NCBI GenBank assembly: GCA_937919165.1
Contig: CALFPO010000026.1
Span: 4,057-68,056 of the forward strand
Length of the DNA: 64,000 bases
DNA from: an uncultured Bacillota bacterium
Lineage (GTDB): Bacteria > Bacillota_I > Bacilli_A > Erysipelotrichales > Erysipelotrichaceae
Reading direction: 5' to 3'
Both the position numbers and the translations under genes were made by a program. Below the pieces are notes generated by a model that saw only the letters and a list, made by a program, of their open reading frames with translations, ran no database searches and was not told the origin of the DNA. Shown in pieces: positions 31,090 to 61,745 of this stretch; positions within the stretch are counted from its first letter, which is position 1; the number at the start of each line of letters is the position of its first letter.

Positions 31090-32265
31090 ATGTGGTCAGA
31101 TAAGAGATACGTAAACGTTATTATTGATGTGCTTTTGTTCCTTGTAGGAATCAATTTTTTGCATTATGGACAGCTGATACTTCCTGTTATCTGTCTTATG
31201 TTGTTCATAGACAGAAAATTTAGATTCAAGGTAAATAACTTAAAGACGTTTGTGGTGCTATGTCTATTTGCGATCGCGTTCTTTGCCTTCTCATATGGCT
31301 ACAGTTTCTATTGCGTAATGGGATTCTGTCTGCCGATGGCTTACTATATCGGATCAAATATGAAGGATATTAACGAGAACAATGTAGCTAAAGCCATATA
31401 TATAATTGCCTTCGGCATGTCTGTTCATCTGATGCTTAACTTTGCATACGACTATTATGTTCTTGGCCCTGGATTCATGGGAAGACATCATCACTACGAT
31501 ATATGGACCCAAGGAATAGTGGCGGTAACTACAACAGCTGTCAACAGCATACCTATCATCTATTCCATATACTACGTGATTTTCTATGAAACAGATCGAA
31601 TATGGAAAGTAACGGGAATGGTATTCTTCTTGGCGTCGATGATATACAATCTTGCGCTAGGAAGAAGAACCCCTGTATACATACTGATCATCTCTTTTGT
31701 GTTCTCGGTGCTTTATGAGAAGCTTGTTTTGAAGCATAAGAAAAAGGATCTCAGTAAAGCGTTGAAGCTTTCTATTGTGATTGTATGTGTTGCCTTTGTT
31801 ACTTTTGTTTTTGCATACATGCTAAATATCTTCAATTTGAAATCCGCAATCGGAGAACTCTATATAATCACTAAGTTCAAAGAAGGATTGCTGGATATGG
31901 AAAGGCTGAAGATATTTATCGGCGCAGTTAAATTGGCCCCATATCATTTGTTCGGAGGACAGGAAATCAGTTCTATCCTTGAAATAGAGGTTCATGACCT
32001 ATGGATGGATACGTATGATTTCGCTGGTATTGTGCCATATGCTTTGCTTATCGTTTATTCAATTATCTATCTGTTGAATATGGCTAAAGCTTTAAGAAGC
32101 GGAATATCCAATGGCTTCAAGATATTCGTTTTAAACATATCTGTTTCGACAGGCTTGCTAATGTTCATTGAACCAGTAATGACAGGATCATCGTTGTTCC
32201 TTATCTGTTCGGTGATGATTGGGGCATTGATAGAAGGGATGCTGAATGAGAATGAAGGAAAATAA
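31090..32265 (+). CDS. wzy: Wzy-type polymerase / O-antigen-ligase-like membrane protein
   Basis: 391 aa, about 10 TM helices. 'NLALGRRTPVYILIISFVF' resembles the Wzy_C/O-antigen ligase Arg block. Adjacent to wzx. Confidence 0.55.
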   Translation: MWSDKRYVNVIIDVLLFLVGINFLHYGQLILPVICLMLFIDRKFRFKVNNLKTFVVLCLFAIAFFAFSYGYSFYCVMGFCLPMAYYIGSNMKDINENNVAKAIYIIAFGMSVHLMLNFAYDYYVLGPGFMGRHHHYDIWTQGIVAVTTTAVNSIPIIYSIYYVIFYETDRIWKVTGMVFFLASMIYNLALGRRTPVYILIISFVFSVLYEKLVLKHKKKDLSKALKLSIVIVCVAFVTFVFAYMLNIFNLKSAIGELYIITKFKEGLLDMERLKIFIGAVKLAPYHLFGGQEISSILEIEVHDLWMDTYDFAGIVPYALLIVYSIIYLLNMAKALRSGISNGFKIFVLNISVSTGLLMFIEPVMTGSSLFLICSVMIGALIEGMLNENEGK

Positions 32266-42395: not shown

Positions 42396-43471
42396 AGGTC
42401 TGTTGGCTGACAACCGTTCCTGCGCCATATACCATCAAGCTGTTCAATGAAGTCGGCAAGATTGTCGATCTTTATGTCGTGCTTAATGATGTCAGCGAAG
42501 CAAACAGAAACAGCGAATGGGTTGTTGATGGAGACAACAGTTTCAAGCTGTACAGGATAGGTTCTGGTTTCAGATCGATGATCAGAGATCTTGCCAAGAA
42601 ATGCGACATCCTTATTAATGGATTCTATCTATCGAAATATGGCTATATCGCCAGAAAGCAGTTCCACAAGGCTGGCAAGTTGACAGTGATGGCTGCCGAT
42701 GGCGGCATACCAAAGGATAGAGGGTTCATCATCAACGGTATCATGAGCTATCTCATGACCGGCCATGACTATTTCTTGAGTTCCAGCAGATACACCAATA
42801 GGTATTTTGAATTCTATAAGGTAAATCCTGATAAGATTCATCTATACCGTTTTACTTCATTGACTAAGGAAGATATCGAAAGAAACAGAAAGCTTGCAGA
42901 AAAGAAGAATGATTATCGCAAGAAGCTGGGAATCGATGATAAGTTTACTTTGATCAGTGTTGGACAGCCAATCAAGAGAAAAGGTTTTGATATCTTGTTG
43001 AATTCATATATCAAGAGCGGGTTGTCCGACAGGATCAATCTATATATAGTTGGAGGAGACCCTCAAGACGAAACAAGAAAGATCGTTGAGGACAATGGAC
43101 TTACTAATGTTCACTTCATTGGACTGATTAAATCTGATGAACTATCGGAATACTATGCTACAAGCGATGCTTTCATTCTGACAACCAGAGAAGATATCTG
43201 GGGTCTTGTGATTGAAGAGGCGATGTCATATGGACTGCCTGTCATCACCAGCGATAATTGCGTAGCAGGACTTCATTTTGCGGATCTGGGAAACAATACG
43301 CAGATTTGCGGCGTATATGATGAAGAAGGATATGCTAAGCAGATCAGAAATCTTTATGAACAACAAGAAAATATAGCAAAGATAAACAAAGAAGCATTGG
43401 ATGTAATAGAGGAATACAGCATAGAGAACAGTGCGAAGGACATTATTAATGCACTGGACAAAATGCTATAA
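42392..43471 (+). CDS. Glycosyltransferase family 4
   Basis: 'TTREDIWGLVIEEAMSYGLPVITSD' E-x7-E block. ATGA overlap upstream. Confidence 0.85.
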   Translation: MKVCWLTTVPAPYTIKLFNEVGKIVDLYVVLNDVSEANRNSEWVVDGDNSFKLYRIGSGFRSMIRDLAKKCDILINGFYLSKYGYIARKQFHKAGKLTVMAADGGIPKDRGFIINGIMSYLMTGHDYFLSSSRYTNRYFEFYKVNPDKIHLYRFTSLTKEDIERNRKLAEKKNDYRKKLGIDDKFTLISVGQPIKRKGFDILLNSYIKSGLSDRINLYIVGGDPQDETRKIVEDNGLTNVHFIGLIKSDELSEYYATSDAFILTTREDIWGLVIEEAMSYGLPVITSDNCVAGLHFADLGNNTQICGVYDEEGYAKQIRNLYEQQENIAKINKEALDVIEEYSIENSAKDIINALDKML

Positions 43472-44145
43472 TGGTTAAAGTGAAAACGTTGGTAATCATC
43501 CCTGCATTCAATGAGCAGGACAACATAGTGCCTTTGATAAAAGACATAACCAGTTACGGTTATGATTATTTGATAATAAATGACCATTCGACAGACAATA
43601 CGCCTTTGATATTGGATGAGAAGAAGTATAAGCATCTTGATCTTCCTATCAATGTCGGTCTAGCCGGAGTAACGCAGATTGGCTTCAAATATGCTCATGA
43701 TCATGAATATGATTGCGCCATATGTGTCGATGGCGATGGACAGCATCAGCCTTCATATGTCAAATCTCTGATAGATGAAATAGAGAATGGCTATGACTAT
43801 GTTGTCGGATCAAGATTCGTGACGGAAAAGAAGCCTGTATCGTTACGTATGGTCGGAAGCAGAATCCTGTGTTTCCTGATAAAGGTCAAGACACGCAAGA
43901 CGGTAACCGATCCGACCAGCGGAATGAGAGCGCTTGGAAGAAGCGTCATAGATGAGTTCAGCCGTTCAATGAATTTCTATGCTGAACCAGATGCAATGTG
44001 TCACATACTCAACAAGGGATATAAGGTAAAAGAGGTTCAGGTCGAGATGAAGGAAAGGGAAGCTGGCGTTTCCTATTTCCATAATCCGTTCAAGACCATC
44101 TATTATATGCTGAGTGTCATTCTATCGATTGTTTTCATTCAATAG
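43471..44145 (+). CDS. Glycosyltransferase family 2, DPM1/GtrB-like (candidate polyprenyl-phosphate sugar synthase)
   Basis: 'LVIIPAFNEQDNI', 'IINDHSTDNT' and 'ICVDGDGQHQP'. Short (224 aa) with a hydrophobic C-terminus. A DUF2304 gene follows. Confidence 0.8.
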   Translation: MVKVKTLVIIPAFNEQDNIVPLIKDITSYGYDYLIINDHSTDNTPLILDEKKYKHLDLPINVGLAGVTQIGFKYAHDHEYDCAICVDGDGQHQPSYVKSLIDEIENGYDYVVGSRFVTEKKPVSLRMVGSRILCFLIKVKTRKTVTDPTSGMRALGRSVIDEFSRSMNFYAEPDAMCHILNKGYKVKEVQVEMKEREAGVSYFHNPFKTIYYMLSVILSIVFIQ

Positions 44146-44157
44146 GAGAATAGTTAT

Positions 44158-44532
44158 ATGTTAAATATCAACTTAAGAGCTGGATTATTAATATCATCAA
44201 TCATAGTTTTTGGCTTCATTTTATTCACGGTAATAAAGAATAAGCTGAATATCAAATATTCAATCGTATGGATTCTATGGGCTCTTTTGACATTGCTTAT
44301 GTCAGTATTCCCTGAATCGTTCTATGCTGTTGCAGGCTTCTTAGGAATCGAGATGCCGGTCAATGCCGTGTTCCTTATCATGGCTACGCTGCTGTACGGC
44401 TTGGTGTTCTATGTATACATCATGATATCGAAGCACAATAACGAGATAACGGATCTGACCTATGAAATAGCTGATCTCAAAAAAAAGCTCGAAGAAAAAG
44501 AAACCAAAGCAACAAAGAAGAAAACCAAATAA
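44158..44532 (+). CDS. DUF2304-family small membrane protein
   Basis: 124 aa with 3-4 TM helices. 'KYSIVWILWALLTLLMSVFPESFYAVAGFLGIEMPVNAVF' and a charged coiled-coil tail. Canonical position after a GT2. Confidence 0.7.
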   Translation: MLNINLRAGLLISSIIVFGFILFTVIKNKLNIKYSIVWILWALLTLLMSVFPESFYAVAGFLGIEMPVNAVFLIMATLLYGLVFYVYIMISKHNNEITDLTYEIADLKKKLEEKETKATKKKTK

Positions 44533-45766: not shown

Positions 45767-47833
45767 ATGTCGGATAAGAAAATTAAAAACAAGAAACCGA
45801 AGATATCAAAAGACAAGAAGAGAAGGATGATAAGCATCCTGCTTTTTGCCATATGGGCATCCGTGGTTGCCTTGACGTTGTTGATATATAGACCAACTTT
45901 AGGAAAGCTATCAAGCGGAAACGAACTGTGCGACAAGGTGATTGAGCTTGATGAGAATACATTCTTGAGAGCCAACATTCCATCTACTGATGGTGCAGAT
46001 GGCGTTTCTATCAAATTTGCGACCTATCGCCGCAGCAACAGCGGAAACATATACGTTACTGTAACAGGAAAAGACAGCGGCAAGGAATATGCCAAAGAAA
46101 CAATCGATGTAAAGACACTTCAGGACAATACCTTCTCAACAATTCAATTAAATGAAAAACTGAATTCAAAAGAGGATAACGAGATTGTTGTTCACATCAA
46201 GTCAAACAGCAAGAGCGGATCTGCGGCCGGTGTCTATTATTCTACCGAGAAATGCTTTGAGGACAGTTCGTTTTTCATCAAGAACGTCAATACTGAAGGA
46301 GACCTTACTGTAAGATTTCTGCAGGATGACGCTGATCTTCATAGATTCTATCTGATAATCATTATTTGGGTAATTGTATCCTTCACGATAATCGCTGTGC
46401 TGGAGCTGTTTGTAAAGCCTAAATACGAAATCCTATTCATGGTCATTGCGCTCGTTTTCGGTCTGACATTCTGCGTCATCATGACACCGATGTCTCCACC
46501 TGATGAGACAACCCACTATGAGTATTCGTTCCAGGTTTCCAGCATACTCATGGGCGACAAGGAAAACCACCTTGTTTTCAATGAAGAGTATCAGAACTAT
46601 GGTTCATGGGGTGGACATAGAAATGTTTCAGCAGCCTATGTAAGGCTTCTCAACAAGATCAATAAGCCATTGTCATTAAGAGACACGGAAGTGACGATGC
46701 TGTTTGACATAGAGGAGAACTATAAGTTCGCTTTCTTGCCGCAGGCGTTGGGCATAACTTTAGGAAGACTTCTGAACTGGAATATGCTTAGAACCTTCTA
46801 TCTTGGAAGACTGTTCAATCTGGCTTTCTATGTGCTTTGCGTTTTCATCGCCATAAAGAAGACTCCAATACATAAGGTGCTGTTTGGCATTATCGCGACA
46901 ACGCCTATCTTCATGCAGCAGGCTGGATCGTATTCGTATGATGCGTTTGTCAATGGCATGAGCTTGATTACGATTGCCTATACATTGAAATGGATGTTTG
47001 AGAAAGACAAGGTCAAGATTGTCGATCTGATCATCGTGTTCATTGTTGACCTGTGGCTTGCGCCATGTAAAGCCGTATATAGCTGTCTTTCATTCCTCTT
47101 CTGGCTTGTGCCTGCAAACAGATTTGGCGGAAAACTGAAGAAGTTCCTTATAGTGCTTGTATTGACGGCACCTGGCATCTATCAGATGGTAGCTTTGGTT
47201 TGGCCTTTTGCGATCAAGATGGTCGGTGACATAAAAGATATGCTTGCTCAAGCGAAAGAAATGACCGGTGTCGCTATCGCCAGAATCAGAGGATTCATGT
47301 CTCCGAACCTTGAAGGAAGCGAGATTCCTTCATTTGGTGATCTGATAAGGAATCCAAAAGAAGCGATTATGCTGTTCTATAGAACAATAAGATACAACAT
47401 CAAGAACTGGTTCTATGATTCGGTAGGAAGATCGTTGTCTGGCGAGACTTTGGTGCTTCCGATAACTATGGTTCATATTCTGCTTGGAATCATTGTGATG
47501 GCTGCCTTCAGAAGAGAAGATTATGTAGAATCGCCATTCCTGAAAGCGATGATGGTGTTTGTCTGCATCGTTTTGGGATTCGGTTTCATGCTTGGCATGC
47601 TGCTGGCATGGACAGAAGACAATAGAGACATGATGCTTGAAAGCGAACTGGGATTGATGGTAAACGGCGTACAGGGAAGGTACTTCTCTCCGCTGCTTCC
47701 TTATTTCTTCTCCATCCTAAACAACAAAAAGATAGGTTTGCCAAAGGAATCTGATAAATACCTGCTGTCAGCACAGCTTATCCTGATATTTGAGATAGTT
47801 GTGTATGTACTGTCATATACATTCGTTAACTAA
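45767..47833 (+). CDS. DUF2142-family polytopic membrane protein (GT-C-like) with an N-terminal extracytoplasmic domain
   Basis: 688 aa. Basic N-terminus, one TM helix, a soluble segment of about 150 aa, then a multi-TM body containing 'MTPMSPPDETTHYEYSF' (DUF2142-type D-E...H block). Confidence 0.65.
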   Translation: MSDKKIKNKKPKISKDKKRRMISILLFAIWASVVALTLLIYRPTLGKLSSGNELCDKVIELDENTFLRANIPSTDGADGVSIKFATYRRSNSGNIYVTVTGKDSGKEYAKETIDVKTLQDNTFSTIQLNEKLNSKEDNEIVVHIKSNSKSGSAAGVYYSTEKCFEDSSFFIKNVNTEGDLTVRFLQDDADLHRFYLIIIIWVIVSFTIIAVLELFVKPKYEILFMVIALVFGLTFCVIMTPMSPPDETTHYEYSFQVSSILMGDKENHLVFNEEYQNYGSWGGHRNVSAAYVRLLNKINKPLSLRDTEVTMLFDIEENYKFAFLPQALGITLGRLLNWNMLRTFYLGRLFNLAFYVLCVFIAIKKTPIHKVLFGIIATTPIFMQQAGSYSYDAFVNGMSLITIAYTLKWMFEKDKVKIVDLIIVFIVDLWLAPCKAVYSCLSFLFWLVPANRFGGKLKKFLIVLVLTAPGIYQMVALVWPFAIKMVGDIKDMLAQAKEMTGVAIARIRGFMSPNLEGSEIPSFGDLIRNPKEAIMLFYRTIRYNIKNWFYDSVGRSLSGETLVLPITMVHILLGIIVMAAFRREDYVESPFLKAMMVFVCIVLGFGFMLGMLLAWTEDNRDMMLESELGLMVNGVQGRYFSPLLPYFFSILNNKKIGLPKESDKYLLSAQLILIFEIVVYVLSYTFVN

Positions 47834-47843
47834 GGTGAACAAG

Positions 47844-48944
47844 ATGAAAGTATCGATTGTTACTTGTTTTGAATCAAATGAAGAACGTGCAAGCTTTGTC
47901 CTGGAAGCCTGCAAGCAGAGAGGTTATATTGCCAAGGCAATTACGACAGACTTTTCTCATGTGAGAAAGGCAAAAAGAGAAAGCGTACGTGAGGGATTCA
48001 CGGCAGTCAAGACAGATGGTTATGAGAAGAATCTCTCTGTTGCTAGGATGAAATCCCATGCCAAGTTTGCGAAGGATGCTTTTGAGCTTGTCGAAAGACA
48101 ACAGCCAGATTTGATATGGTGTATCGCTCCGGCGAACTCGTTGATCAAGGAAGCCAAGAAATACAAAGAAAAATATCCTTCAGTGAAGATAATTGTCGAC
48201 ATCATTGACATGTGGCCTGAATCATTGCCTATGAATATAAACAAGAACATCTTCCCATTCAATATCTGGAGAAATGTTCGAAAAGACAATATCGGCTGTG
48301 CTGACCTTGTTGTGACCGAATGCGAGTTCTATCAGAATACTCTAATAAATGAGTATAAGGGGCAGATGGAAACTATCTATTGGGCAAAAGATGGCAAGAC
48401 ATATCATGAGAAGCTGAATGTTCCTGATGACAAGATATCATTGGCATATCTTGGTTCCATCAACAACATCATTGATGTTGAATTGATAAAGAAAGCAATC
48501 AGCAACATCGATCGTGAGGTTGTTCTGCATATTATCGGTGATGGCGAAAACAAAGGAAATTTCATCAGTTCTTTAAGCCAAGCATGCACAATTGAAGACC
48601 ATGGTGTAGTTAGAGATGAGGAAGAGAAGGCTAAGATATTCGCTCGTTGCCATGCAGGAATCAACATCTATAAAGAAGGATTATATATTGGTCTAACCAG
48701 CAAATGCATCGATTATTTTGAACATGGCTTGCCTATCATAAACAATATCAAGGGAGATACCTGGCTGTTTGTGAAGAAGAACAGGCTTGGCATCAATGTC
48801 GATGAGAATACCAGAATCAGACATAGAGATATTGAAAGAATGAGAATCAACAATGATTCTATCTATGATATATACAACAATAACTTTACTAAGAAAGTAT
48901 TCATTAAGAACTGCCTATCGGCAATCGATAAGGTGATGAAATGA
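47844..48944 (+). CDS. Putative GT-B glycosyltransferase
   Basis: 'MKVSIVTCFESNEERASF' N-terminus and 'LTSKCIDYFEHGLPIINN' C-terminal block. ATG 47844 follows the upstream stop (47831-47833) and AAGGTG. The track start 47799 would overlap it by 35 nt. Confidence 0.5.
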   Translation: MKVSIVTCFESNEERASFVLEACKQRGYIAKAITTDFSHVRKAKRESVREGFTAVKTDGYEKNLSVARMKSHAKFAKDAFELVERQQPDLIWCIAPANSLIKEAKKYKEKYPSVKIIVDIIDMWPESLPMNINKNIFPFNIWRNVRKDNIGCADLVVTECEFYQNTLINEYKGQMETIYWAKDGKTYHEKLNVPDDKISLAYLGSINNIIDVELIKKAISNIDREVVLHIIGDGENKGNFISSLSQACTIEDHGVVRDEEEKAKIFARCHAGINIYKEGLYIGLTSKCIDYFEHGLPIINNIKGDTWLFVKKNRLGINVDENTRIRHRDIERMRINNDSIYDIYNNNFTKKVFIKNCLSAIDKVMK

Positions 48945-49852
48945 AACTGATTGTCCTGCTTTCTACATACAACGGCGAAAGATATCTGAGACAGCAGCTT
49001 GATTCTTTGATCAATCAGGATCTTAAGCCTGACAAGATTTTGGTTAGGGATGATGGATCAAAGGACGATACAATCAATATTCTTGAAGAATATGCTTCTG
49101 AGCATCCTTTTATTGAGTACTACTACGGACAAAACAAGAAGCCGGCAAGATCGTTTTGGGAACTCATGAGTGTTGCGGATGAGGCAGACTATTATGCCTT
49201 GTGCGATCAGGATGATGTTTGGCAGAAAGACAAGCTTTCTGTTGCCGTAAATATGCTGGAAAAAGAAGACAAGGACATTCCGCTTCTTTACTGCAGCAAG
49301 TATACCTTGACTGATGAGAATCTCAATCCTATGGAGACTGAGATTTCTAAACTATATTCATATACTGATTTTGCGCATTCTTTGCTGTATCATACAGCAC
49401 CGGGATGCACTTTTGTATTCAATAACTTAGCCAGAAAGAAAGCATTGCAGTATGACCTTAGCAAGGAATTTTTCATGATTCATGACGCTATCATCCACAA
49501 GGTGGTGGCAATGTTTGGCAAGGTCATATTGGATAATGATTCGCATATCTACTATCGCCAGCATGGAAACAATGAGATAGGAATGAAATCTGGGCCAATC
49601 AAGACCTTCATTTCAAGAATCAACAATTTCACCAGCGGAAAGATGATCAACTACCGCAGCAAGACAGCAAAGTCATTGCTGAACGTATATGGAAACGAAT
49701 GCAGCGACGAGCAGAGAAGATTGCTGGAGATAGTCGCAAATTATAAAACAGACAAGAAACTTAGAGAGCATTTGATCAATGACGAGTGTTTCAAGACACA
49801 TACGATCAACGATCAATTCTTCAAGGTTTTGGTAATGCTCAATTATATTTGA
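48941..49852 (+). CDS. Glycosyltransferase family 2
   Basis: 'LSTYNGERYLRQQLDSLINQ', 'DDGSKDDT' and 'CDQDDVW' (DxD). Confidence 0.85.
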   Translation: MKLIVLLSTYNGERYLRQQLDSLINQDLKPDKILVRDDGSKDDTINILEEYASEHPFIEYYYGQNKKPARSFWELMSVADEADYYALCDQDDVWQKDKLSVAVNMLEKEDKDIPLLYCSKYTLTDENLNPMETEISKLYSYTDFAHSLLYHTAPGCTFVFNNLARKKALQYDLSKEFFMIHDAIIHKVVAMFGKVILDNDSHIYYRQHGNNEIGMKSGPIKTFISRINNFTSGKMINYRSKTAKSLLNVYGNECSDEQRRLLEIVANYKTDKKLREHLINDECFKTHTINDQFFKVLVMLNYI

Positions 49853-49867
49853 TAAAATATTATAGTT

Positions 49868-51286
49868 ATGACAAAAGAGAAGCTTAAGAAGATATTCTTG
49901 CTAATATTCCTTGCTACTGTAATTATGCTTACAGGTTTTAGGCTGTTGGCTGGTGAACAGTTTGAATATCGTGATTCTCGATACAACATAGGCATGGAAG
50001 CTGCCGATTCGGCTACCGAAGAGCTTCATAAAGGTGTTGTTGTTGAACAGGAATTCATAAATAAGATCGATAGATTCTCATCTATGACCTTTGCGTATAC
50101 AACCCATTACCGCAAGAATCATGGAACATTAAGAATAAAGCTATACTGTGACGATAGTCTTCTGATATACGAGAAGATTGATGTTTCCTCTTTGAATGAG
50201 GGAGAAGTCATCTATATCGAGGCAGATAAGATGATTGAGGACCTTGTTGGCCGAAAGTTTAGGGTTTCTTTGGAAGCTGATTCGCAGCCTGGATCAGGCA
50301 TATCGTTGCTGATGAATTCCAAAGGAAAACAAGGAAACATGTACATCAGCAACATGAGAAGATTCGGCAATCTTTGCTTCTCTGCTCAAGGACAGGAGTA
50401 CATCTTCACTGGCCAGTATTACTGGTATATGGCTTTGGGTGTATGGGCAGCTGTTGCCTTGGCGCTATATCTTTCATATCGCGATTTCTGCAATGGCAAG
50501 CCAAACTATATCGTGATCGCCATAATGGCAATCGGAAGATACAAATTTCTGATCAGCCAGTTGGTTGCCAGAGATTTCAAATCAAAATACAAGAGATCAG
50601 TATTGGGTATCTTCTGGAGCTTCCTGAATCCATTGCTGACGATGACGGTTCAGTATTTCGTATTCTCAACATTCTTCAATAGCGATACCAAGAACTATCT
50701 TGTATATCTTTTGGCAGGCGTTGTCTGCTACAACTTCTTCAATGAAGCAACAACAATGTGCCTTACTTCCGTATCTGGAAATGCAAGGCTCATCACAAAG
50801 GTCTATATTCCAAAATACATATTCCCATTGTCTAGAACAATCTCATCAATGATAAATCTCGGCATCTCTTTAATACCGCTTTTGCTTGTAAGCCTATTTA
50901 CGGGAGTGGTGCTTCAGAAGTCGGCTATTCTGGTGTTCTACTTCTTGGCTTGCCTTGTGGTGTTTGCCTTGGGTGTAGGAATGCTTCTGGCTACTTTGAT
51001 GGTATTCTTCAGAGATATCCAATTTTTGTGGAGCGTTTTGAGCATGATCTGGATGTATGCGACGCCAATCTTCTATCCTGCAAGCATCATTCCAGAGAAG
51101 TACAGCTTCATCATGGATCTTAATCCGCTTCAGCATTTCATCAAGAATGTAAGAATGTGCCTGATCGATGGCATATCGCCAGGTCCTAAGTCATATATAT
51201 TCTGTTTCATATTTGCAGTCGGTTCGCTGCTTTTGGGTCTGTTTGTATTCAAGAAGGAACAGGATAAGTTCACCCTTTATCTGTAG
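49868..51286 (+). CDS. wzm: ABC-2 type polysaccharide exporter permease (Wzm/TagG-like) with an N-terminal extension of about 200 aa
   Basis: The C-terminal ~270 aa start with 'ARDFKSKYKRSVLGIFWSFLNPLL' (ABC-2 permease signature) followed by 6 TM helices. The N-terminal part is a TM helix, a soluble segment of about 150 aa, and a second TM helix. Confidence 0.8.
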   Translation: MTKEKLKKIFLLIFLATVIMLTGFRLLAGEQFEYRDSRYNIGMEAADSATEELHKGVVVEQEFINKIDRFSSMTFAYTTHYRKNHGTLRIKLYCDDSLLIYEKIDVSSLNEGEVIYIEADKMIEDLVGRKFRVSLEADSQPGSGISLLMNSKGKQGNMYISNMRRFGNLCFSAQGQEYIFTGQYYWYMALGVWAAVALALYLSYRDFCNGKPNYIVIAIMAIGRYKFLISQLVARDFKSKYKRSVLGIFWSFLNPLLTMTVQYFVFSTFFNSDTKNYLVYLLAGVVCYNFFNEATTMCLTSVSGNARLITKVYIPKYIFPLSRTISSMINLGISLIPLLLVSLFTGVVLQKSAILVFYFLACLVVFALGVGMLLATLMVFFRDIQFLWSVLSMIWMYATPIFYPASIIPEKYSFIMDLNPLQHFIKNVRMCLIDGISPGPKSYIFCFIFAVGSLLLGLFVFKKEQDKFTLYL

Positions 51287-51294
51287 GAGTACCG

Positions 51295-52047
51295 ATGGCT
51301 AAAGAGAAAGTTATTGAAGTCAAGAATGTAACAATGAAATTCAGAATGAGCGATGAACCTATAAACTCACTGAAAGAAATCTTTACTACGGCCATAAAGG
51401 GAAATCTCAGATTCAACGAGTTTTTGGCTTTGGATGATGTGTCCTTTGAGGTATTGAAAGGGGAGACATTGGGACTTATAGGAAACAATGGTGCCGGAAA
51501 GTCCACAACCCTGAAGCTCATATCAGGCATCCTCAAGCCAACAAGCGGAACTATAATCACCAAAGGAAATATCGTTCCTATGCTGGAGCTTGGTGCAGGT
51601 TTTGACCTTGAGCTTACCGGCAGAGAAAACATCTATCTTAATGGCGCAATACTTGGTTATTCTAAGGAATATCTTGAATCAAAATATGAAGAGATTGTCG
51701 ATTTTGCGGAAATAAGAGAATTCATCGATATGCCTATCAGAAACTACTCATCGGGCATGATGGCAAAACTGGCGTTCTCGATTGCGTCAGTTGTTCAACC
51801 AGAGATACTTATCGTTGATGAAATATTGGCTGTTGGAGACATTGCTTTCCAGAAGAAGAGCTATAGCCGCATGAAAGAACTTATGTCTGGCGGTGCAACG
51901 GTGCTGTTTGTATCTCACGATATCGAAAAGATCGAAGAGATGTGCGATAAGGTCGTTTGGCTCAATCATGGCAAAGTTGTCATGAATGGCGAAGCGGAAG
52001 AAGTATGCAAAGCTTATAGAGAAGCTCAAGGAATAAAAGAAGAATGA
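51295..52047 (+). CDS. wzt: Polysaccharide/teichoic-acid exporter ATP-binding protein (Wzt/TagH-like), short form
   Basis: Walker A 'GLIGNNGAGKSTTLK', signature 'YSSGMMAKLAF', Walker B 'ILIVDEILAVGD'. Only 250 aa, so it has no C-terminal carbohydrate-binding domain. Confidence 0.9.
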   Translation: MAKEKVIEVKNVTMKFRMSDEPINSLKEIFTTAIKGNLRFNEFLALDDVSFEVLKGETLGLIGNNGAGKSTTLKLISGILKPTSGTIITKGNIVPMLELGAGFDLELTGRENIYLNGAILGYSKEYLESKYEEIVDFAEIREFIDMPIRNYSSGMMAKLAFSIASVVQPEILIVDEILAVGDIAFQKKSYSRMKELMSGGATVLFVSHDIEKIEEMCDKVVWLNHGKVVMNGEAEEVCKAYREAQGIKEE

Positions 52048-60920: not shown

Positions 60921-61745
60921 ATGAGTGAAGAGATTGTAAAAAAGAGAATCATTAAGCCTCAAAGGGTTGTGAAAAAGAAGAAACCAAAGAAATCGTTCTT
61001 TGGTGATAAGAAAAGCAGATGGTGGAAGCTGCTTCTTGTGTTGTTGCCATTCATTGCGGGAATCGGCTTTTTCGGTGTGATTATCTTTAGGGAAGCAAAG
61101 GGATTGCTTGATAGCTTAAAGAACAACACAACAGAGACCAAAGTTGATTACAACATCTCCTCAATGAACTATGTTCTTAGAGATACTGCTACAGAGTATC
61201 AGCAGGAGATATTCTCAGAACTGAAAGATCTAGTTGAAGCCCATCCAAATTATGAAGAGGTCGACATTGAAGCCGTTTCATTGGTTGCCAAGAACTATGT
61301 TGCCGATTTCTATACTTTTACCAATAAGCAGGGCCAATATGATGTGGGCGGAATGCATTATGTATATTCGCATAGTGATGAAAGAGAAAATATCTATCTT
61401 AAAGCAAGAGATGGTTTCTATAAATACCTGAGCACATATGCCACAAAATACGGAGCAAAGAATTTGATTGAGGTTGAGAATGTAGAAGTGCTTTCCTGCA
61501 CAAGATTGCCTGAAGCACATATCATCAACGAACATATCAGCTTTGTGTATGATGAGGCCAATGACGATTGGGTTGACTATCGTGAAGACGTTGAATACGG
61601 AGCATACAATGTTTCATGCTCGTGGACATATAAGGAAGGCTACCAGCCTAGTACGACGAAGTTCCCTACATCAATCAATCTTCTGATTATTGATCGTGGC
61701 GGAAGATACGAAATAGTTAAAGCAAGCGAGGGCTCTTTACGATGA
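60921..61745 (+). CDS. Membrane-anchored protein of unknown function (basic N-terminus, one TM helix, extracytoplasmic domain)
   Basis: 274 aa. 'KKRIIKPQRVVKKKKPKK' followed by 'WWKLLLVLLPFIAGIGFFGVIIF'. I recognise no family motif. ATGA overlap with the LCP gene. Confidence 0.55.
   Translation: MSEEIVKKRIIKPQRVVKKKKPKKSFFGDKKSRWWKLLLVLLPFIAGIGFFGVIIFREAKGLLDSLKNNTTETKVDYNISSMNYVLRDTATEYQQEIFSELKDLVEAHPNYEEVDIEAVSLVAKNYVADFYTFTNKQGQYDVGGMHYVYSHSDERENIYLKARDGFYKYLSTYATKYGAKNLIEVENVEVLSCTRLPEAHIINEHISFVYDEANDDWVDYREDVEYGAYNVSCSWTYKEGYQPSTTKFPTSINLLIIDRGGRYEIVKASEGSLR

Follow-up and report, generated by a model that had tools for sequence, protein, structure and literature searches.

An uncatalogued lectin-like ectodomain on a Wzm-type permease and a DUF2142 protein probably holds sugar polymer outside the membrane

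What is understood of the ABC transporter-dependent export of wall polysaccharides comes from the Gram-negative Wzm-Wzt systems and from TarGH. To our knowledge, none of the permeases in these systems carries a domain outside the membrane, and the only known glycan-reading module is located on the cytoplasmic ATPase. The exporter encoded in the window (the whole stretch of 64,000 nucleotides analyzed here, from an uncultured bacterium of the Erysipelotrichaceae) has the same ABC-2 core and adjacent ATPase as the Wzm/RfbD, KpsM, RgpC/RgpD and TarG/TarH exporters. As in other wall polysaccharide loci of the Wzm-Wzt type, it lies in a rhamnose-type locus with an LCP ligase. However, the Wzm and KpsM library models span 257-272 positions, whereas the permease of the window has approximately 205 extra N-terminal residues that make up a cassette of transmembrane (TM) helix, ectodomain and TM helix.

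Accessory glycan-recognition modules are known from two kinds of related systems. The C-terminal domain of Wzt from E. coli O9a-type systems is likewise a beta-sandwich module on such an exporter, but it is carried by the ATPase and is cytoplasmic, while the module described here is on the permease, is predicted to be outside and is unrelated in sequence. The DUF2142 protein encoded upstream of the permease resembles EmbC (with a C-terminal CBM), the GT136 enzyme ORF12 (with a beta-rich domain) and the DUF2142 proteins of the GacL/WpsJ/WpsI type, which are polytopic enzymes acting with polyprenyl-phosphate sugars on the outer side of the membrane. In GT-C enzymes of the EmbC and GT136 ORF12 type, the extra extracytoplasmic beta-rich domain is thought to hold the acceptor. 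In comparison with these enzymes, the module of the window is N-terminal, is part of a two-TM cassette and belongs to a family that the enzyme has in common with an exporter permease.

Layout of the two proteins and their locus

The features on which the analysis rests are as follows.

43471..44145, + strand: GT2 glycosyltransferase, a candidate polyprenyl-phosphate-sugar synthase resembling GacI/GtrB (Pfam Glycos_transf_2, E 1.7e-23; syntenic in relatives)
44158..44532, + strand: small DUF2304 membrane protein, GacJ-like partner of the GT2 (Pfam DUF2304, E 2.3e-23)
45767..47833, + strand: P0001, GT-C-like polytopic DUF2142 protein of 688 aa whose N-terminal part is a TM-ectodomain-TM cassette (Pfam DUF2142)
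45830..45886, + strand: TM1 of the DUF2142 protein, aa 22-40 (hydropathy and charge count), preceded by a tail with 11 K/R in 21 aa
45887..46345, + strand: ectodomain of the DUF2142 protein, aa 41-193 (sequence comparisons; all-beta AlphaFold model)
45977-46312, + strand: profile-matched core of this ectodomain, aa 71-182
46346..46411, + strand: TM2 of the DUF2142 protein, aa 194-215 (hydropathy), leading the chain back to the cytoplasm ahead of the first core helix
46496..46525, + strand: acidic PPDETTHYEY loop of the DUF2142 protein, aa 244-253, directly after the first core helix (about aa 225-243)
49868..51286, + strand: P0002, the long Wzm ABC-2 permease of 472 aa (Pfam ABC2_membrane; NCBIfam Wzm/KpsM models)
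49892..49948, + strand: TM1 of Wzm, aa 9-27 (hydropathy and charge), after a Lys-rich start
49949..50425, + strand: ectodomain of Wzm, aa 28-186 (eight-member alignment; all-beta AlphaFold model)
50426..50485, + strand: TM2 of Wzm, aa 187-206 (conserved GQEYIFTGQYYW junction, then a run of hydrophobic residues)
51295..52047, + strand: Wzt ATPase of 250 aa, nucleotide-binding domain only (Pfam ABC_tran only)

The locus also contains rmlACBD, a priming transferase, the LCP ligase and many glycosyltransferases, and a Wzx-type gene is found at 32246, 10 kb upstream. The decoration module begins with the GT2 gene at 43471. Judged from their sequences, the GT2 (43471), DUF2304 (44158) and DUF2142 (45767) genes appear to form a GacI/GacJ/GacL-type set within one locus, and the role assigned to the GT2 and DUF2304 pair is based on that of GacI and GacJ (PMC9574508).

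Hydropathy and charge gave the same N-terminal layout for the DUF2142 protein and Wzm, in which TM1 comes after a K/R-rich tail and is separated from TM2 by a loop of about 150-160 aa. A preliminary description of this DNA had proposed a tail, TM helix, soluble segment and second TM helix for both proteins, and this layout was recovered with segments of about 155 aa; its coordinates and residues were also right, the strings it quoted being located at aa 78-184 of the DUF2142 protein and aa 68-173 of Wzm. The canonical membrane bodies follow the cassettes. The Pfam matches to DUF2142 (PF09913; 116.8 bits against a gathering threshold of 30.1, aa 229-645, profile positions 1-393 of 395) and to ABC2_membrane (PF01061; 67.4 bits, cut-off 26.9, E 1.7e-18, aa 229-430) both start only at aa 229 of their respective proteins, and the NCBIfam models for Wzm and KpsM cover aa 228-465 of Wzm. 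The long Wzm scored 66.7 bits against the cut-off of 380 bits for the equivalog NF050109 and 48.3 against 300 bits for NF050053. As both scores fall far short of these cut-offs, the long Wzm is a relative rather than an orthologue of the named transporters.

Both ectodomains are predicted to lie outside the membrane from the charge bias, the flanking TM helices and the known topologies of the cores. The N-terminal tails of both proteins are basic, and each cassette leads directly into the cytoplasmic N-terminus of a canonical core: judged from the start of the NCBIfam model alignment, TM2 of Wzm ends at the point where an ordinary Wzm would have its cytoplasmic N-terminus, and TM2 of the DUF2142 protein is followed by a short KPKYE loop. 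The outward orientation claimed in the preliminary description is thus borne out as a prediction. By the logic of GT-C enzymes in the literature, the PPDETTHYEY loop is a candidate for the catalytic outer loop 1.

Homology, fold and distribution of the ectodomains

The ectodomains of Wzm and the DUF2142 protein are homologous. A direct BLASTP comparison of the two segments gave 26.6 bits (E 8e-5) with 21% identity over 110 aa, and the Smith-Waterman score was 73 compared with 30.9 +/- 5.4 for 2000 shuffles (z 7.8), none of which scored as high. With hhalign, eight Wzm domains matched the DUF2142 segment with a probability of 91.6% (E 8e-7). Furthermore, each segment of the window matched a profile made from the other host class: an HMM built from 49 domains of Wzm proteins only matched aa 71-182 of the DUF2142 protein with 75.6 bits, and an HMM from non-Wzm domains, with P0001 left out, scored Wzm at 115.6 bits. 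Chance similarity was ruled out by the shuffles, hhalign, the reciprocal HMMs and the library search described below, and the homology at low identity that had first been seen by eye stands far above chance. A recent duplication between the two copies of the window was not supported either; they were placed in well-separated parts of the domain tree, although this tree was poorly resolved and its deep split poorly supported.

AlphaFold models computed from separate alignments were all-beta for both ectodomains, with pLDDT values of 92.0 for Wzm and 91.5 for the DUF2142 protein. The two models show the same predicted beta-sandwich, and the same seven PDB structures head both neighbour lists in identical order, in agreement with the beta-rich character suggested earlier from sequence, and the Wzm model matched a DUF2142 cluster of the ESM Atlas with a TM score of 0.84. 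The neighbours (Z for the DUF2142 and Wzm models, respectively) include a phi812 baseplate protein (13.2 and 12.9; PDB 9EUF chain 0), a PBCV-1 capsid protein (12.6 and 12.1), the Bxb1 tail tip (9.7 and 10.7) and the lectin-like domain of Cwp84 (9.6 and 10.0; PDB 4CI7), with an esterase CBM-like domain among those next in the shared list and CBM15, 8, 27, 32, 61 and 86 lower down at Z 6.6-8. The likeness to the Cwp84 domain (PF18560) and the phage 812 protein, which are among the nearest solved folds, is at the level of the fold only. According to the phi812 paper, the tripod protein of the baseplate has Cwp84-like and CBM-like domains, which are proposed there as wall-glycan binders; the match found here is to a baseplate protein chain that may be the tripod protein, and carbohydrate binding by the Cwp84 and baseplate domains is itself only proposed. 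BcsB of cellulose synthase was a weak neighbour (Z ~7). In a layout similar to that predicted for the long Wzm, it is membrane-anchored and has periplasmic beta-sandwich carbohydrate-binding-like domains above a polysaccharide channel, but it is a separate subunit of a synthase-dependent system and a generic structural match, whereas Wzm belongs to an ABC exporter. The fold alone is no proof of sugar binding, because the nearest folds include non-lectin capsid and PHR domains.

A library of 1.84 billion proteins was searched with a profile built from Wzm domains only. The search found 586 cluster representatives (50% identity) at E <= 1e-3, of which 102 reached E <= 1e-10. Among the matches were also other DUF2142, PMT_2 and YfhO enzymes, with E-values as low as 1e-14. 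A Pfam scan of 20 library matches, comprising longer ones and one short free form, detected DUF2142 in eight, ABC2_membrane in three, and PMT_2 and YfhO in one each. The domain family is a mobile module that occurs on Wzm, on GT-C-type enzymes (DUF2142, PMT_2 and YfhO) and as a free membrane-anchored protein; Wzm, GT-C and YfhO proteins were the hosts among which the preliminary description had suggested looking for it. A strongly hydrophobic segment preceded the domain in nearly all those of the 107 library matches outside the Wzm and DUF2142 classes that had at least 17 preceding residues. Nevertheless, the family is not strictly extracytoplasmic, since P0104 (E 3e-11), a GT2 fusion with two domain copies, is without a TM helix. 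The eight-sequence Wzm alignment, used as a query for related loci, returned seven loci. In a phylum-wide draw of 399 genomes the domain was present in five, a number of carriers too small for the draw to say much on co-occurrence.

The ectodomain family is uncatalogued. Neither Pfam nor NCBIfam had a match in the N-terminal parts of the full-length Wzm and DUF2142 proteins, and Pfam gave sub-threshold noise only on 45 non-Wzm domain sequences, with Lectin_like PF18560 (Cwp84) reaching at best 15.7 bits against a gathering threshold of 27 in two of the 45 (E 0.008-0.018). HMM searches of PDB sequences with the ectodomain returned nothing below E 0.28. A known domain under another name was accordingly rejected on the basis of Pfam, NCBIfam and PDB sequences. 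The searched literature on DUF2142, Wzm extensions and GT-C accessory domains yielded no description of the module, so the remark in the preliminary description that this architecture had not been seen described agrees with the databases and the searchable literature. The ectodomain represents an annotation gap and deserves a family entry.

Sequence divergence differed between the hosts. Within the family of long Wzm proteins, the ectodomains are 26-45% identical and the bodies 72-76%, and the type of ectodomain varies even among orthologues of the same genus with bodies about 75% identical. Such fast divergence of the Wzm ectodomain is as expected for a ligand-facing part. In the DUF2142 orthologues, domain and body evolve at about the same rate.

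Proposed function and competing explanations

The ectodomain probably holds sugar polymer outside the membrane; we infer glycan binding from its fold and its context. The form of this proposal that we find reasonably probable is that the N-terminal cassettes display a lectin/CBM-like domain outside, that the ligand of this domain is the glycopolymer or its lipid-linked end, and that each copy works for its own host protein, independently of the other. Two ectodomain copies in a Wzm dimer would flank the channel exit, where they may capture or steady the emerging undecaprenyl-linked polysaccharide. The ectodomain of the DUF2142 protein would keep the acceptor polymer close to the acidic outer loop, and the enzyme would then transfer a side-chain sugar, with the polyprenyl-phosphate donor being produced by the adjacent GT2 and DUF2304 pair. 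The two copies may bind the same polymer, as the preliminary description suggested, but they share 21% identity and were placed in well-separated parts of the poorly resolved domain tree. A widespread lectin-like ectodomain common to a permease and to lipid-linked-sugar transferases would point to an unstudied post-channel step in gut Bacillota, and with cultured carriers known, such as Agathobaculum butyriciproducens DSM 100391, the question is testable at the bench.

A more elaborate possibility, which we regard as doubtful, is that the copies at the Wzm exit grip the chain as an outward clamp and either ratchet it or hand it off to GT-C decorators and LCP ligases, with the cassette being a swappable specificity determinant that recombines with the adjacent free copy. 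Exporter, decorator and polymer type would then co-vary, and Gram-positive ABC-dependent glycan export would include a new extracellular step.

Some features of gene order would suit a protein-protein docking module through which the Wzm, GT-C and free copies pair into an export-decoration complex. In this genus, the gene of the domain-bearing DUF2142 protein lies 4-5 kb upstream of that of the domain-bearing Wzm in one syntenic block, and many genomes of the genus have a third, free domain copy directly before Wzm. However, we consider docking unlikely. The long Wzm is the sole genome-wide copy of the domain in four Clostridia (two Agathobaculum species, one Saccharofermentans and one Clostridia MAG), a domain-bearing PMT_2 enzyme was found in a locus without any exporter, and the two copies of the window are as dissimilar and as well separated in the poorly resolved tree as described above. 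Because the four Clostridia have the domain on Wzm only, export need not be tethered to decoration, and the earlier suggestion that the shared module links the two processes is weakened by these genomes and by the PMT_2 copy. A complex prediction of the two ectodomains scored 0.00, which by the rule of the tool speaks neither for nor against contact.

Another ligand is improbable as well. The domain might bind peptidoglycan, the lipid carrier at its pyrophosphate-sugar head group or some other component of the wall, and so position its host or act as a membrane-proximal spacer. This would be consistent with the few polar positions kept in all host contexts whatever polymer is made (the E..G...Q.F and T.x.R.N.G motifs) and with the TM helices that tie both ends of the domain to the membrane. 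In contrast, a variable ligand fits better than a universal one, because the Wzm copy diverges fast and its type differs among orthologues, and neither Pfam nor the PDB fold neighbours revealed any similarity to known peptidoglycan-binding domains.

The ATPase offers a last comparison with the proposed polymer-holding role. The wzt gene starts 9 nt downstream of wzm, and its product matched ABC_tran (E 9.4e-21) and otherwise only P-loop models; the Wzt partners of long Wzm proteins in nine other loci are 242-262 aa in length. The preliminary description was correct that this Wzt lacks a carbohydrate-binding domain, but its emphasis on the point was misleading, as the absence is ordinary for such exporters. 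ATPases of the Wzt, RgpD and TagH types that lack a CBM are commonly seen alongside ordinary short permeases, too. It is very unlikely that the Wzm ectodomain stands in for the missing Wzt C-terminal domain as a recognition gate licensing the export of finished chains, even though each long Wzm examined has a short Wzt of 242-262 aa, since the same domain occurs on GT-C enzymes that do not export. Moreover, cap reading by the Wzt module takes place on the cytoplasmic side, ahead of export (PMC11127046), a task that an outside domain cannot perform. Being predicted outside, the Wzm ectodomain would see the polymer only once translocation is under way.

Layout of the glycan locus

The genes for the long Wzm permease (P0002, 472 aa) and the DUF2142 protein (P0001, 688 aa) of the window belong to a long locus for cell-envelope glycans whose genes run in one direction. 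Judged by its gene content, the layout is that of a rhamnose-type wall polysaccharide pathway with an ABC exporter and a GacI/GacJ/GT-C-style extracytoplasmic decoration module; decoration of this kind has been reviewed (PMC9574508). In the literature, DUF2142 proteins are described as GT-C-type transferases or polymerases (WpsJ/WpsI type) by prediction only. As the preliminary description had stated, Wzt carries no carbohydrate-binding domain, Pfam showing its ATPase domain and nothing more.

Table. Gene order of the glycan locus in the window
Upstream part: Wzx-type and sugar-nucleotide genes
Between these and the GT2 gene at 43471: GT8, then GT1
43471-44145: GT2
44158-44532: DUF2304 membrane protein
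Between the DUF2304 and DUF2142 genes: GT-B
45767-47833: DUF2142 protein
Between the DUF2142 gene and Wzm: GT1, then GT2
49868-51286: Wzm
51295-52047: Wzt
After Wzt: two more GTs
Locus end: rmlA/C/B/D, Bac_transf priming enzyme, LCP ligase

Just 5' of the Wzx-type gene lies a 391-aa ORF without a Pfam match (31090-32265), possibly a Wzy-like polymerase, and a 274-aa ORF, also without a Pfam match (60921-61745), is coupled to the LCP ligase gene. The GT1 ORF at 47799-48944 (381 aa) has a TTG start and a 35-nt overlap with the DUF2142 stop; since its orthologues in relatives are shorter (366-368 aa), the true start is probably located ~13-15 codons downstream of the TTG.

Homology, fold and predicted topology of the ectodomains

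Pfam coverage of the two proteins was confined to their C-terminal bodies (DUF2142, aa 229-645; ABC2_membrane, aa 229-430 of Wzm). Alignment to the NCBIfam models for Wzm (272 positions) and KpsM (257 positions) spanned Wzm aa 228-465, and the first ~205 residues of Wzm are thus extra. The residues on which a shared N-terminal domain had been proposed by eye were correctly placed (DUF2142 aa 78-184, Wzm aa 68-173), and pairwise alignment of the two segments was significant, so that the similarity is real. BLASTP aligned 110 aa at 21% identity (E 8e-5), and the Smith-Waterman score stood out by 7.8 SD over 2000 shuffles, none of which equalled it. The N-terminal extension was kept in all eight Wzm homologues (472-474 aa), and comparison of an eight-Wzm domain profile with the DUF2142 segment by hhalign gave a probability of 91.6% (E 8e-7). 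A Wzm-only HMM of 49 sequences matched the window DUF2142 protein at aa 71-182 with 75.6 bits, while a non-Wzm domain HMM from which that protein had been left out matched the window Wzm with 115.6 bits. Alignment of the Wzm and non-Wzm profiles reached 100% probability, a partly circular value because the non-Wzm set had been collected with the Wzm profile. These sequence comparisons establish the homology of the two ectodomains.

AlphaFold models were built for the Wzm ectodomain from a Wzm-only alignment and for the DUF2142 ectodomain from a separate, non-Wzm alignment. Each was a confident all-beta sandwich (pLDDT 92.0 and 91.5; pTM 0.84 and 0.85), and by Foldseek the two had their three best PDB matches in common. 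In an exhaustive structural scan, the top seven neighbours were also common to both, in the same order and with near-identical Z-scores: a phage 812 baseplate protein, a PBCV-1 capsid protein, the Bxb1 tail tip, the Cwp84 lectin-like domain, two esterase CBM-like domains and a cyanophage capsid protein. The models thereby demonstrate one predicted fold for the two ectodomains. PHR domains, many CBM families and BcsB ranked lower. According to the phage 812 paper, the baseplate tripod protein contains Cwp84-like and CBM-like domains, for which wall-glycan binding is proposed; the chain matched here is a baseplate protein, possibly another one. Sub-threshold Pfam matches pointed to the Cwp84 Lectin_like family, and a Lectin_like cluster was among the weak, named leads of a feature search. 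The Wzm model further matched ESM Atlas models of DUF2142 (TM 0.84), GT87 and PMT_2/GT39-type proteins.

Hydropathy and charge gave a common N-terminal plan for the two proteins: a basic tail (11 K/R in 21 aa for DUF2142; 4 K in 8 aa for Wzm), a hydrophobic helix, a loop of 150-160 aa that is acidic to neutral, and then another helix. The N-terminus of canonical Wzm is cytoplasmic in solved structures. In a GT-C core, the N-terminus ahead of the first helix is likewise cytoplasmic, with the acidic loop outside. Because the cassette adds two helices and a basic tail ahead of this cytoplasmic core N-terminus, the ectodomain is strongly predicted to be extracytoplasmic in both Wzm and DUF2142, in agreement with the outward orientation first suggested for it. 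Two loops of DUF2142, the short KPKYE and PPDETTHYEY, are consistent with this placement. Among 107 non-Wzm, non-DUF2142 library hits, a strongly hydrophobic segment preceded the domain in nearly all with enough preceding sequence.

Spread and evolution of the ectodomain family

A search of 1.84 billion cluster representatives with the eight-Wzm domain profile recovered 586 proteins at E <= 1e-3, of which 102 reached E <= 1e-10. Wzm, GT-C and YfhO proteins, on which the domain was to be sought, were all found. A Pfam scan of 20 hits, comprising the longer ones and one short free form, assigned DUF2142 to eight, ABC-2 permeases to three, and PMT_2, YfhO and a GT2 fusion to one each; six had no Pfam match, including the free form P0057. 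Six of the eight DUF2142 hits had a single N-terminal copy, whereas P0065 had two matched stretches ahead of the body and P0124 a C-terminal domain. P0104 (L015:3480-5957), a complete 825-aa protein from a 29-kb metagenome contig with many small unannotated genes, is a notable exception to the preceding hydrophobic segment: two domain copies are followed by two GT2-type domains with no TM helix, presumably a soluble, cytoplasmic use of the same fold. These architectures, read from sequence, demonstrate a modular spread of the family. Also among the hits were P0079, a 451-aa TM-domain-TM-domain-TM protein, and P0140 (810 aa), a polytopic protein that has no Pfam match and ends in two domain copies.

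Exactly two copies were present in the window's genome. Of 36 same-genus genomes, 14 carried the domain, in most cases with its copies grouped in a single syntenic block ordered GT2, DUF2304, GT-B, DUF2142 with domain, GT1, GT2, an optional free protein, Wzm with domain, short Wzt and a large GT. The free copy (173-176 aa; one TM helix plus the domain) is located directly upstream of Wzm; in the window, which has none, the GT2 gene and Wzm are 15 nt apart (49853-49867).

Table. Free domain proteins in same-genus genomes
L012:4704-5225, minus strand
L014:4688-5218, minus strand
L013:6153-6683, plus strand

In the domain tree, whose deep branches were poorly supported and whose bootstrap had not settled, host contexts were clustered without being monophyletic (13 changes versus 38 with shuffled labels). 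The main clade of ~20 free proteins was nested inside this family's Wzm clade (support 100/94). The window DUF2142 copy was located elsewhere on a long branch, so that this tree, with its poorly supported deep branches, does not support a recent duplication between the two window copies.

Across Wzm orthologues, ectodomains were 26-45% identical versus 72-76% for ABC-2 bodies; the window ectodomain (49949-50425) was 26-31% identical to those of L012:3282-4700 and L014:3263-4687, versus ~75% for the bodies. In DUF2142, domain and body diverged at similar rates. In same-genus genomes with a free copy, the Wzm ectodomain grouped with the neighbouring free copies and not with the window type, which suggests cassette replacement. 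The Wzm ectodomain thus likely behaves as a swappable cassette, through gene conversion or cassette replacement.

Candidate role and linkage of the two carriers

No Pfam or NCBIfam family covers the ectodomain, and profile searches found no sequence relative in the PDB. A literature search of incomplete coverage returned no account of an extracytoplasmic domain on any Wzm or of GT-C enzymes bearing the present domain, in line with the earlier impression that the architecture is undescribed. Accessory glycan modules are known from ABC-dependent glycan pathways; here the module occupies a new place, and its domain family is unnamed.

The best explanation would be a lectin-like module that faces outward and holds the glycopolymer, serving the exporter and lipid-linked-sugar transferases independently of each other. 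We infer glycan binding from the fold neighbours, the host proteins and the divergence pattern. The idea that the ectodomain takes the place of the Wzt cap reader is contradicted by topology, since that reader works in the cytoplasm (PMC11127046) and the ectodomain is predicted outside.

The proposal that the shared module tethers export to decoration is weakened: within the genus the copies usually share one syntenic block, but tethering need not be invoked for genomes that carry the domain on Wzm alone. Complex prediction of the two ectodomains was uninformative on this point. Every long Wzm seen was paired with a short Wzt (242-262 aa). Outside the window's lineage the linkage breaks: a PMT_2 enzyme with the domain is encoded far from any exporter, and the long Wzm is the sole domain copy in four Clostridia genomes. 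Agathobaculum hominis M2 and A. butyriciproducens DSM 100391 encode a long Wzm (483-499 aa) and a 262-aa Wzt with no other domain copy in the genome; as cultured gut Clostridia, they would be convenient for testing the domain's role.
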